Assembly (NCBI GenBank): GCA_038858525.1 | Contig: JAWCFL010000037.1 | Coordinates: 1 to 16,735 of the forward strand | Reading direction: 5' to 3' | Length of the DNA: 16,735 nucleotides | Source: Candidatus Jordarchaeales archaeon | GTDB lineage: Archaea; Asgardarchaeota; Jordiarchaeia; Jordiarchaeales; Freyrarchaeaceae | Part shown: positions 10,188 to 13,562 of the stretch, one piece after another | Layout: each line of letters starts with the position of its first letter | How positions within the stretch are numbered: position 1 is the stretch's first letter | The notes under the pieces: generated by a model | The model's database searches: none | Told to the model about the DNA's origin: nothing | What the model saw: the letters and a program-made list of their open reading frames with translations, nothing else | Made by a program: the position numbers and the translations under genes

Positions 10188-10225
10188 CCATGTCCCCAAT
10201 TTTATTCTTGGGGAGGTTGTGTATT

Positions 10226-11401
10226 GTGCCAGGCTCTACCGAGAACGGAGGAAGCTACGAGGAAAAATACGAGGACATAGTGGCGTACGCGCGTGACATT
10301 GAAAAGAAACTTTACAAGCTTGACGCCGAAAGGATGAGGCTCTATCAGGAAGTAATCCAGCTCAGAAGAGAGCTGGAAGCACTTAAGCAACCCCCCCTCA
10401 TCTCAGCTACTGTGCTTGAAACATTGGATGATGGTAGAGTCATTGTTAGAAGCACCACAGGCCCCAACTTCGTGGTTTACGCTTCAAGTGAAATTCCAAG
10501 GGAGAAGCTTGCCCCCGGGGCCCACGTCGCCCTAAGTCAGAAAACATTCGCTATAGTTGAAGTCTTGCCTACACCTGAAGACCCATTTGTGAAGGGCATG
10601 GAGGTTGAAGAAGTCCCTCCCGTAACGTACGCTGATATAGGCGGGTTAAAGGAACAAATTATGGAAGTTAGAGAGACTGTTGAGCTACCCCTTGTGCGTC
10701 CTGACCTCTTCGATGAAGTCGGAATAGAACCCCCGAAAGGCGTACTTCTATGCGGCCCTCCAGGGACAGGAAAGACCCTGCTGGCTAGGGCGGTGGCTCA
10801 CGAAACAAAGGCAACATTCATAAGGATCGTTGGCTCGGAGCTCGTCCAGAAATTCATAGGCGAGGGGGCACGGATAGTTAGGGAGGTTTTCCAGCTTGCC
10901 AAGAAAAAGGCGCCAAGCATAGTTTTCTGTGACGAAATAGACGCTATAGGCAGTAGAAGAATAGATGTCGGGACAAGTGGTGACAGGGAAGTTCAACGTA
11001 CCCTAATGCAGCTTCTCTCCATAATGGACGGCTTCGACTCGAGGGGAGACGTAAAAATAATAGGTGCAACAAACAGGCCTGACATACTTGACCCCGCCCT
11101 CCTCAGGCCTGGAAGATTTGACAGGATAATCTACTTCCCGCTTCCAGACTTAGAAGCGAGGGAGGAAATTTTCAAGATACACACTCGACGCATGAAGCTT
11201 GACCCCAGCGTCAACCTCCGAACGCTCGCCGAAATAACCGAGAACGCTACAGGAGCAGATATAAAGGCGATATGCACCGAAGCTGGAATGTTCGCGATCA
11301 GGGACTTCAGGACGAGGGTTACATTCAACGACTTCGAAAAAGCCGTAGAGAAGGTGCTGAAAAGATCCAAGGGAGAGAGTCCACCAAGAATATACAGCTA
11401 G
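10226..11401 (+). CDS. pan: Proteasome-activating nucleotidase (AAA+ ATPase)
   Basis: N-terminal coiled coil and OB domain (LKQPPL...[14 protein letters not shown]), Walker A GPPGTGKT, pore loop KFIGEGAR, Walker B (V)[30 protein letters not shown]-terminal IYS (HbYX). Start re-called to GTG at 10226 with SD GGAGGT. Confidence 0.96.
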
Positions 11402-11422: not shown

Positions 11423-11911
11423 TTGGAAGAAAATAACTACTGGGTTTTACGCAAGCTGAGACTAATAGCGGATTATCAGTTCCTGCCTGGAGCCGGAAAA
11501 GCTCTTTTCCCTGAAAATGTTAACGTTTATTTCTCCTCCAAGACAGGTAGAGTTAAGGAGATCCGGTTGGGAGGAGAGCTTGTAGCAAGTTTCAGGCCTG
11601 ATGATGGAACATTCGCTCTCAGCATAAGGGGAGCCGAGCTTCTCCTGAGAAACTTTCAGAAACCACGTTTAAGAGCGATAATTGAGGAAACCGTCGCCGA
11701 TGTGGTGGCTGAGGGACGAAACGTTTTCGCTAAGCACGTGGTGGAAGCTGACCCGGAGATAAGGTCAGGTGACGAAGTCATAGTCGTAGATGAGAGAGAT
11801 ATACTTGTAGCAGTCGGAAAAGCAGTTCTCAGCGGAGAAGAAATGGTGGCATTCTCGAGGGGAATCGCTGTAAAAACCCGTATTGGAAATCCACTCTTTA
11901 AACGTAATTAA
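11423..11911 (+). CDS. Stand-alone pre-PUA(C2)+PUA protein resembling the C-terminal domains of archaeosine tRNA-guanine transglycosylase
   Basis: LR.IADYQF..GAG.ALF...S.KTGRVKEI; PUA motif GRNVFAKHV..AD.EIR.GDEV.VVDE.D.L.AVGKA.LSG.EM....GIAVK.R. Confidence 0.8.
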   Translation: MEENNYWVLRKLRLIADYQFLPGAGKALFPENVNVYFSSKTGRVKEIRLGGELVASFRPDDGTFALSIRGAELLLRNFQKPRLRAIIEETVADVVAEGRNVFAKHVVEADPEIRSGDEVIVVDERDILVAVGKAVLSGEEMVAFSRGIAVKTRIGNPLFKRN

Positions 11912-11929: not shown

Positions 11930-12268
11930 TTGAGGAAAGTTAGTTCTAAGCAATTAAAGAAAATGATGAAGCAAATGGGAGTTAAAGAAATTCCCGCCCT
12001 TCAGGTCACAATAAAGTGCGCAGACAAAGAGATAATCATAACCAACCCGCAAGTAGTTGAAATGAAAGTAGCCGGACAGAGAGTATACCAAATCTCAGGA
12101 ACCACGGAAGAAAAAACAACAGAAACAGAAAAGAAACAAGTTGAAATCCCCGAAGCAGACGTGATGCTCGTGGCGCAACAGGCAGGCGTAACGCCTGAAG
12201 AAGCCAGAAAAGCCCTAATGGAAACAGAAGGGGACCTAGCAAGAGCAATCCTGCTACTTAAAAAATAG
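11930..12268 (+). CDS. nac: Nascent polypeptide-associated complex protein (archaeal NAC)
   Basis: QLKKMMKQMG...EI.A.QV.I......I.NPQV..M...GQ..YQISG, followed by UBA domain DVMLVAQQAGV..EEARKAL....GDLA.AI. TTG start with SD GGAGGT. Confidence 0.95.
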   Translation: MRKVSSKQLKKMMKQMGVKEIPALQVTIKCADKEIIITNPQVVEMKVAGQRVYQISGTTEEKTTETEKKQVEIPEADVMLVAQQAGVTPEEARKALMETEGDLARAILLLKK

Positions 12269-12466: not shown

Positions 12467-13126
12467 TTAAGCCCCTACCTCGCCTACCTCACTTTTTTTC
12501 TCAAGAATTGCTTTAACGCGTTTCAGCCGGAACAGGTCTTCTCTTTCCCGTTCCTCGAGGTGGAGTGAAATGTATCTTATCGTGTTCTCCAGTTTCGGAA
12601 TGATGATGTATTTCAACGCATTAACTCGGCGCTTAGTCTTGTCTATTTCTTCAGCTAACTTTTTCACAGCAGTCTCAACTTCCGCTAGTTGAATTGCAAG
12701 CTTTAAAGCTTCTCTGAACTTCTTAGTTGCCTCGTCAAGTATTGCAGACGTGTCCGCGAAACCGTAAGGCGGCATCTTCACCTTACCCTCTTTAATGTTT
12801 AACAAGGGAACTTTAACTCCCATTATGTTTTGAAGGGAGACTTCGACCTCGTAGAGAGACTCAGCCCCCATAGCCGCCTCCTCAACTTTAAGTGGCCCCA
12901 TAACCATTTTAGCCAAAATAAGTGCCTCAAAAGCCTCTTTGAGGGCGTTGTTCAGCTCCCTCCTAAGTCGCCCAGCATCCTCAAGTATGTCAAAGAAATG
13001 CATGACTAAAGCGTCCCGTTTCTCCTTAAGTAAGTCATGCCCCTTTTCAGCTAGAACAATCCTCCTCTTTAAGGCTAAGAGCTCCATCCGTGTAGGATGA
13101 ACGCCCTCTATTATTCCAGTCGACAA
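12467..13126 (-). CDS. atpD: A/V-type ATP synthase subunit D
   Basis: PTRMELL.LKRR..LA.KGH.LLKEKRDAL; NIMGVKVP; LA.EI.KTKRRVNALKYIIIP.L...I.YI...LEE.EREDLFRLK. Start re-called to TTG at 13126 with SD GGAGG; the track start is 13225. Confidence 0.93.
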   Translation of the reverse strand: MSTGIIEGVHPTRMELLALKRRIVLAEKGHDLLKEKRDALVMHFFDILEDAGRLRRELNNALKEAFEALILAKMVMGPLKVEEAAMGAESLYEVEVSLQNIMGVKVPLLNIKEGKVKMPPYGFADTSAILDEATKKFREALKLAIQLAEVETAVKKLAEEIDKTKRRVNALKYIIIPKLENTIRYISLHLEEREREDLFRLKRVKAILEKKSEVGEVGA

Positions 13127-13183
13127 TTCATCATTCCTCCAAAAGAGAAACCTAAGCGGCAAAAACCCAAAACTCAAAGGAGC

Positions 13184-13198
13184 AATAAAAATTTTTTT
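13184..13198 (-). promoter_or_regulatory. Possible own promoter of atpD
   Basis: Minus strand AAAAAAA-TTTTTATT about 58 bp upstream of the TTG. Confidence 0.35.
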
Positions 13199-13236
13199 GC
13201 ACGTTTTGCAATGCTTAACCGGCAAAAATAGTGTTG

Positions 13237-13404
13237 TGGCGCGGGGGGCGGGATTACCACCTTAGGAGCATAATTTCTCCCATCGGCTTTGAACCCGCGC
13301 TCCCCAACGGGGAACTGGCTCTCTAAGAGTAAGCATTGCTGCTTAACCCTTAGCAGGCCAGCACCTTACGGCGGCTCCACTTAACCGGGCTTGGTTACCC
13401 CCGC
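13237..13404 (-). tRNA. tRNA-Ser(GCT) with three introns and encoded CCA
   Basis: Exons 13404-13382, 13366-13351, 13320-13288 and 13253-13237 join to 89 nt. Acceptor stem GCGGGGG/CCCCCGC, D stem ACC/GGT, anticodon stem CTGGC/GCCAG with loop CT-GCT-AA, long variable arm TCCCC-GTT-GGGGA, T stem GCGGG/CCCGC with loop TTCAAAT, discriminator G73, then CCA. Introns are 15, 30 and 34 nt. Confidence 0.92.
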
Positions 13405-13430
13405 ACCATGATTAAAGAAAATTTCGCGAT

Positions 13431-13443
13431 TATTAAAACTTAT
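13431..13443 (-). promoter_or_regulatory. TATA box of the tRNA-Ser gene
   Basis: Minus strand ATAAG-TTTTAATA, 27-34 bp upstream of tRNA position 1. Confidence 0.55.
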
Positions 13444-13562
13444 GGTTGTCCACATCTTGCTGTTTTAAATATTCATGTCTAAAAATTGCTTCATAATGAT
13501 GATTTTTAACCATAAAGATTATATTTAGTCAATTGCTCGTTAACGCATCCTTTTTGTAGGAG

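Follow-up and report, generated by a model that had tools for sequence, protein, structure and literature searches.

A tRNA-Ser(GCU) gene with three predicted introns in an Asgard archaeon of the class Jordarchaeia

The tRNAs of Thermoproteales (Pyrobaculum, Thermofilum) reportedly contain up to three BHB introns per gene, located in the D-, anticodon- and T-loop. These multi-intron tRNAs are cut by an (alpha-beta)2 EndA carrying a Crenarchaea-specific loop. Closer to the gene described here are the tRNA genes of its own lineage. In three complete genomes of Atabeyarchaeia and Freyarchaeia (= Jordarchaeia), introns were found in 92-95% of the tRNA genes and were often non-canonical, with several introns in more than half of the genes (Valentin-Alvarado et al. 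2024, PMC11291895). A later census has Jordiarchaeaceae as a focal family and gives about 2.2 inserts per gene over the three intron-rich focal families, 2.01 inserts per gene for Jordiarchaeaceae in an independent panel, and up to five inserts per gene (Goswami et al. 2026, bioRxiv 10.64898/2026.10.13.758758). The census also places the richest Pyrobaculum genome, with 1.54 inserts per gene, below the Jordiarchaeia burden and reports that D-arm inserts are frequently missed by tRNAscan-SE. The Ser(GCU) gene described below is not named in the text of the 2024 and 2026 papers.

Layout of the gene and its conservation in relatives

The window analysed is a stretch of 16,735 nt (Candidatus Jordarchaeales archaeon, assembly GCA_038858525.1, contig JAWCFL010000037.1), and all positions without a genome label refer to it. 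The tRNA-Ser(GCU) gene, including G1 and the encoded CCA, is 168 nt long and lies at 13237..13404 on the minus strand. On that strand, 13404-13237 starts with GCGGGGG and finishes with CCCCCGC-G-CCA. Intron positions were numbered per Sprinzl, and all of the following features are on the minus strand. Exon 1 (13382..13404, 23 nt) holds the 5' strand of the acceptor stem, U8 and A9, the 5' strand of the D-stem, and the D-loop to A21; it is invariant in five genomes. Predicted intron 1 (13367..13381, 15 nt) sits in the D-loop at 21/22 and has a canonical BHB. Exon 2 (13351..13366, 16 nt) consists of the 3' strand of the D-stem, G26, the 5' strand of the anticodon stem, and the loop to A37 with the anticodon GCU, and is followed by predicted intron 2 (13321..13350, 30 nt) at the canonical position 37/38, with a relaxed BHB. 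Exon 3 (13288..13320, 33 nt) runs from A38 through the 3' strand of the anticodon stem, the long variable arm, and the 5' strand of the T-stem to A59 in the T-loop. Predicted intron 3 (13254..13287, 34 nt) interrupts the T-loop at 59/60, also with a relaxed BHB. Exon 4 (13237..13253, 17 nt) supplies U60, the 3' strands of the T-stem and acceptor stem, G73, and the encoded CCA (13239-13237).

The four exons were joined into an 89-mer, which ARAGORN calls as tRNA-Ser(gct) with a 7-bp acceptor stem, a 16-nt variable region, and a standard T-arm. By reading, the invariant nucleotides U8, A14, G15/C48, G18G19, A21, U33, A37, G53, U54U55C56, A58, and C61 are all in place. With discriminator G73, an encoded CCA, and a long variable arm, the product is a class II tRNA-Ser(GCU). 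The 168-nt precursor gave no ARAGORN call, intron option included, and the unspliced gene gave no Rfam tRNA match at the gathering score. When 13100-13550 (451 nt) was searched with Rfam at E<=10, there was no tRNA match and no sign of a C/D-box guide in the introns; only chance-level snoRNA/sRNA matches were returned (E 1.4-7.4). A preliminary description of the locus had stated that an 89-nt class II cloverleaf forms only if 13381-13367, 13350-13321, and 13287-13254 are removed, and its coordinates and lengths proved exact; ARAGORN calls the spliced form only. Its remark that default scans miss such genes also holds for the unspliced gene, which both ARAGORN and the Rfam tRNA model miss.

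At 13430..13441 (minus strand), 26-37 nt upstream of G1, is the A/T-rich box AAGTTTTAATAA. The three congeners share it unchanged and the other genus of the family has a similar one (AAAGTTTAAAAT); the box is likely an archaeal TATA/BRE promoter element. Downstream, a T5 run at 13224..13228 (minus strand), 9 nt from the CCA, is a plausible archaeal terminator as judged from sequence only and is not conserved in relatives. The ATP synthase subunit D gene (12467-13225, minus strand) follows the tRNA gene directly. Elsewhere in the window, a stand-alone 162-aa ORF at 11423-11911 (plus strand) has only TGT_C2 and PUA domains, the two that make up the C-terminal part of archaeosine tRNA-guanine transglycosylase; this ORF is flanked by genes for a PAN-type proteasome ATPase (10190-11401) and NAC (11930-12268).

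Forty related genomes were searched with BLAST for the Ser(GCU) gene. Full-length matches were obtained in all three congeners (G001-G003) and in the family's one other genus (G004). In the alignment of the five genomes, the exons are constrained, and the three inserts lie at the same sites and vary in sequence and length. Exon identity is 89/89 in G003, G001, and G002 and 85/89 in G004, whereas the identity of introns 1, 2, and 3 to this gene is 0.58, 0.70, and 0.65 in G003; 0.47, 0.67, and 0.65 in G001; 0.55, 0.53, and 0.59 in G002; and 0.47, 0.47, and 0.74 in G004 (47-74% over the four relatives). The introns are 14-20, 19-28, and 26-31 nt long in the relatives, and 14-20, 19-30, and 26-34 nt when this gene is included. 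G004 differs from this gene at four exon positions: two form a compensatory change of U28-A42 to C-G in the anticodon stem, and two fall in the variable-arm loop. When species-representative genomes were scanned with an exact pattern, genes with identical exons were found in three: Candidatus Jordarchaeia archaeon QC4, Candidatus Jordarchaeum sp. LHC_1308, and MAG S9B3_HD70 (labelled Thermoproteota).

Constrained exons with freely changing inserts at fixed sites are the strongest evidence that the inserts are removed from a functional RNA. This pattern supports the earlier claim of one tRNA-Ser(GCU) gene needing three excisions in three arms. The preferred reading, to which a probability of about 0.9 is given, is that this tRNA-Ser(GCU) gene is functional and has three introns, with EndA and RtcB as the processing enzymes.

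Folding at the three splice sites and the splicing enzymes

The standard archaeal geometry against which BHB motifs were scored has, on each strand, a central helix of 4 nt and then a bulge of 3 nt in which the cut follows the second base; helices flank it on the outer and inner side. All three intron boundaries can slide by 1-2 nt with the mature sequence unchanged. Every sequence-equivalent register was scored; in this genome, BHB-like geometry occurs only in the registers of the preliminary description, and it occurs there at each site. That description had put each boundary after the second base of a 3-nt bulge next to a 4-nt central helix. The bulge position is borne out at all three sites, and the complete 4-nt helix at intron 1 only, with three of four pairs at introns 2 and 3. 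Intron 1 alone is therefore motif-confirmed, and introns 2 and 3 belong to a relaxed class. Under a null of shuffled inserts or moved insertion sites, the canonical class was obtained in 0-10% of trials and the class with 3/4 pairs and both helices in 0-7%; for the classes of intron 1 and intron 3, the null rates are summed up as about 2-12%. The BHB conformers are 0-12 kcal/mol above the free MFE of each arm (37 C).

Intron 2, though at the canonical position, is the weakest motif of the three. In the 37/38 register, it has 3/4 central pairs in this genome (CUGC/UUAG) and in G002, and just 2/4 in three relatives, G003 and G001 among them. In this genome, the motif also has a 6-bp outer helix, a 4-bp inner helix, and an inner hairpin capped by GCAA. 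The MFE structure of the region 13321-13366 with 13315-13320 (anticodon arm and intron 2) is an extended hairpin that is more stable than the BHB conformer by 11 kcal/mol (37 C) and hides both splice sites and the anticodon. Within it, intron 2 pairs near-perfectly with the anticodon loop (C32-G, U33-A, C35-G, U36-A, A37-U), a pairing of this genome only that is not conserved in G002 or G004. Nearest-neighbour models normally under-predict bulged motifs; the gap of 11 kcal/mol is thus a caveat and not a refutation.

The folding of intron 2 bears on the first of the competing readings, namely that this intron is spliced in another register or structure (38/39, bulge-helix-loop), perhaps requiring prior refolding or an ordered processing. 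The mature sequence stays the same with shifts of +1 and +2, the 37/38 register is poorly paired in G003 and G001, and the MFE hairpin masks both sites here. In G004, 4/4 central pairs are formed only in the sequence-equivalent 38/39 (+1) register, and the fold of that register is also the free MFE of the arm. In this genome, however, the +1 and +2 registers have 1/4 central pairs, and another register or structure is considered unlikely. It is a refinement of the preferred reading rather than an alternative to it, since the mature product is identical either way.

Intron 3 has the central helix UUCA/UGGU with 3/4 pairs and a U54.U mismatch, and the bulges AA-G and AA-U (hyphens mark the predicted cuts). 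Its outer helix is the T-stem (5 bp), and its inner helix is 2-5 bp across genomes. All five orthologues have 3/4 pairs and two helices, and all five show the pattern 0111, in which a U54.U/C mismatch is followed by U55-G/A, C56-G, and A57-U. Among them, U55-G changes to U55-A, and the inner hairpins differ in sequence between genomes.

The central helix of intron 1, CGGU/GCCG, is fully paired (C-G, G-C, G-C, U-G), and its bulges are UA-A and UA-A. The outer helix has 3 bp, formed by G15-C16-C17 with G23-G24-U25, so the register of the 3' strand of the D-stem in the precursor differs from that in the mature tRNA. The inner helix is minimal (0-3 bp). Central pairing is 4/4 in four of the five orthologues, against 4-7% of shuffled inserts. 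It could be argued that the D-loop insert is not an intron and is kept as an enlarged D-loop, with only the inserts at 37/38 and 59/60 being spliced. The minimal inner helix of intron 1 agrees with this, and the 2026 census (bioRxiv 10.64898/2026.10.13.758758) deliberately uses the term 'intervening sequences' for D-arm stretches, without RNA evidence of removal. Yet of the three introns only intron 1 has the full canonical motif, in 4/5 orthologues, and its sequence and length (14-20 nt) drift freely next to an invariant flanking D-loop. Retention would also produce a D-loop of 27 nt instead of 12, and ARAGORN does not recognise the precursor. Retention of the insert is accordingly judged very improbable.

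Exactly two EndA homologues (PF01974) were found in the genome, each with N- and C-terminal EndA domains. EndA alpha (191 aa, G000:C3) can be aligned from end to end with 3P1Z_B, the catalytic alpha subunit of A. pernix (1.6e-48). It retains the Tyr/His/Lys triad as well as the Crenarchaea-specific loop lysine, which is aligned to Lys44 of the A. pernix protein. EndA beta (198 aa, 32% identical to alpha) has Ala at the position of the catalytic His and is without the 9-residue loop. Its closest solved structures are the M. jannaschii alpha4 EndA (1A79, 3.4e-31) and the M. kandleri EndA (5X89), and no crenarchaeal beta chain among the solved structures matches it below 1e-3. The EndA beta locus is L014:1189-1785 (G000:C43), and the protein has an acidic, Glu-rich N-terminal tail of ~25 residues. 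RtcB is also present (5e-181). By gene content, the enzyme would be an (alpha-beta)2 EndA with an L1 specificity loop. The broad-specificity (alpha-beta)2 endonuclease anticipated in the preliminary description matches this genome with its two paralogues, the alpha subunit with triad and loop lysine and the beta subunit without the His. Kaneta et al. (2018, PMC5829648) mapped (alpha-beta)2 EndA with the L1 loop to Asgard archaea and associated it with the ability to cleave introns that are relaxed and non-canonical.

Under the three-intron reading, the apparently single-copy gene would be transcribed as a ~168-nt precursor from the conserved A/T-rich promoter box. The precursor would carry three protein-spliced BHB-type introns at 21/22, 37/38, and 59/60, and the host (alpha-beta)2 EndA would cut within the 3-nt bulges. 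The lysine of the alpha specificity loop is the feature that lets crenarchaeal enzymes accept relaxed motifs at non-canonical positions. RtcB would then join the four exons into an 89-nt class II tRNA with encoded CCA. The exact cleavage sites given here are predictions.

Copy number, hidden tRNA genes, and the sister family

The anticodon-bearing exon matched no other locus in the genome, and the other loci that resemble it in acceptor stem or T-arm, namely the Ser(UGA), Ser(GGA), and Leu(CAG) genes described below, all carry interruptions. The assembly (92.7% complete, 63 contigs) yielded no second Ser(GCU) gene, a possibility that the preliminary description had set out for checking. No uninterrupted Ser(GCU) anticodon arm of this type was found in five family genomes, one of which is 95% complete in 8 contigs. 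When the whole genome was scanned permissively for another GCU anticodon arm (stem of 5 bp, YUGCUR, intron at 37/38 optional, T-loop-like motif downstream), 332 matches resulted; they included the real gene and were indistinguishable from chance. AGY accounts for 28 of 74 Ser codons (38%) in seven window ORFs. As far as a draft assembly can tell, this gene appears to be the only one on which AGY decoding rests.

The pattern used to scan metagenomes allowed 0-30 nt at introns 1 and 2. It recovered three contigs (3.7-21.6 kb), all of them unspliced DNA, which is uninformative on splicing because mature tRNAs are too short to assemble. That the locus is a decaying or untranscribed pseudogene, and that a different, unassembled or unrecognisable Ser(GCU) gene reads AGY, would be compatible with the incomplete assembly and with the lack of a transcript in this one contig scan, but is hardly credible given exons conserved across five genomes where introns and flanks diverge, a conserved promoter box, an anticodon exon at no other locus, and family genomes devoid of an uninterrupted Ser(GCU) arm.

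Over the whole genome (2.09 Mb, 92.7% complete), ARAGORN with the intron option reported 11 tRNAs, and the Rfam tRNA model reported 5 above threshold. Several of the 11 ARAGORN tRNAs are dubious, with implausible 'introns' of 100-320 nt. An anchor scan for uninterrupted pairs of T-arm and acceptor stem gave ~13 credible tRNA genes of 85-192 nt. This does not suffice for an inventory, as the majority of T-arms or acceptor stems carry interruptions of their own. The greater part of the genome's tRNA set is hidden from standard tools. Three further genes were resolved by eye: Ser(UGA) at G000:C21:30825-30950 (minus strand), with two inserts and CCA not encoded; Ser(GGA) at G000:C2:102997-103159 (plus strand), with about three inserts and CCA encoded; and Leu(CAG) at G000:C11:54134-54283 (minus strand), with at least three inserts. 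Their insert sites include the variable arm, the anticodon stem (about 29-31), and the T-loop. These multiply interrupted genes, together with the low counts from ARAGORN and Rfam, bear out the earlier expectation of more hidden multi-intron RNAs.

Of six genomes searched in the sister family Freyrarchaeaceae, four have a Ser(GCU) gene whose 37/38 site is uninterrupted. Three of these genes were spliced by hand; they have 2-3 inserts each, and every product is ARAGORN-positive. In G007 and G008, the inserts are at 29/30 (4/4 central pairs) and 59/60. The gene of G006 (G006:C1:1690130-1690305, = L021:1432-1607, minus strand, 176 nt) has three inserts, one after nt 15, one at 29/30, and one in the T-loop near 58/59. 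The T-loop intron site is common to the order or nearly so, and the D-loop and anticodon-arm sites differ between families. Repeated gains of tRNA inserts are the published picture, with which these family-specific sites agree.

G006 is the published complete Freyarchaeia genome, as its Val(TAC) and Asn(GTT) genes lie at the exact coordinates of Supplementary Data 4 (PMC11291895). This table has 38 tRNAs, and Ser(GCT) is absent from it although G006 has the 176-nt Ser(GCU) gene. According to the 2026 census (Goswami et al., bioRxiv 10.64898/2026.10.13.758758), genes undetected by tRNAscan-SE are invisible to that census. At least one Ser(GCU) gene of the order thus lies outside the 2024 table and, as far as the census is limited to tRNAscan-SE detections, outside the published catalogues; this may apply to some others of the order. 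A published 'Ser AGA' tRNA of the same genome at 1326639-1326821 (within G006:C1:1326589-1326871, L027) has an Infernal score of 25.2, the acceptor stem GCCGGGG/CCCCGGC, and discriminator U. There is no ARAGORN call at this locus, and for this reason its anticodon assignment looks doubtful.

A further-reaching proposal can be put forward only tentatively. The Ser(GCU) genes could be disrupted beyond recognition for the published Asgard catalogues across the order, as suggested by the orthologue missing from the complete Freyarchaeia table and by a census of tRNAscan-SE-detected genes only. AGY decoding could then need an unusually relaxed endonuclease or ordered or assisted refolding, in view of the canonical-position intron hairpin that buries both splice sites and the anticodon in this genome. 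Taken as a whole, this proposal is more doubtful than not.

Relation to described systems

What is new is an omission: the tRNA table published for the complete Freyarchaeia genome lacks the Ser(GCU) orthologue. The gene in the window is itself a well-supported, ordinary example in a lineage already published for multiply interrupted tRNAs and matters little alone. It is, however, an essential AGY-serine decoder that is invisible to ARAGORN and the Rfam tRNA model. Since such a decoder escapes these callers and its orthologue is absent from the table of the order's one complete genome, the tRNA complements of these Asgard genomes are still under-annotated. The gene also offers a compact test substrate for the Asgard splicing endonuclease, with one canonical and two relaxed motifs in three arms of one 168-nt transcript.

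The gene was initially described as rare and was set beside Thermoproteales. This framing does not stand: the host is of the Asgard class Jordarchaeia, and the heavy interruption of tRNA genes in this lineage has already been published, so a three-intron tRNA is ordinary here. With a Jordarchaeia host and three inserts, the gene falls in the class of heavily interrupted Jordiarchaeia tRNAs. It resembles the published ones in being of the same lineage and in having several short inserts per gene, many of which are at non-canonical D-arm and T-arm sites, with BHB-like boundaries. Thermoproteales differ in belonging to another phylum and in an intron burden lower than that of Jordiarchaeia, and many Asgard inserts are missed by standard callers. 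The predicted endonuclease is like the crenarchaeal (alpha-beta)2 EndA (A. pernix 3P1Z) in its two separate paralogous genes, in the triad and loop lysine of alpha, and in a beta subunit without the catalytic His. It is unlike that enzyme in that the host beta subunit, among solved structures, is nearest to 1A79 and 5X89 and matches no crenarchaeal beta chain below 1e-3.
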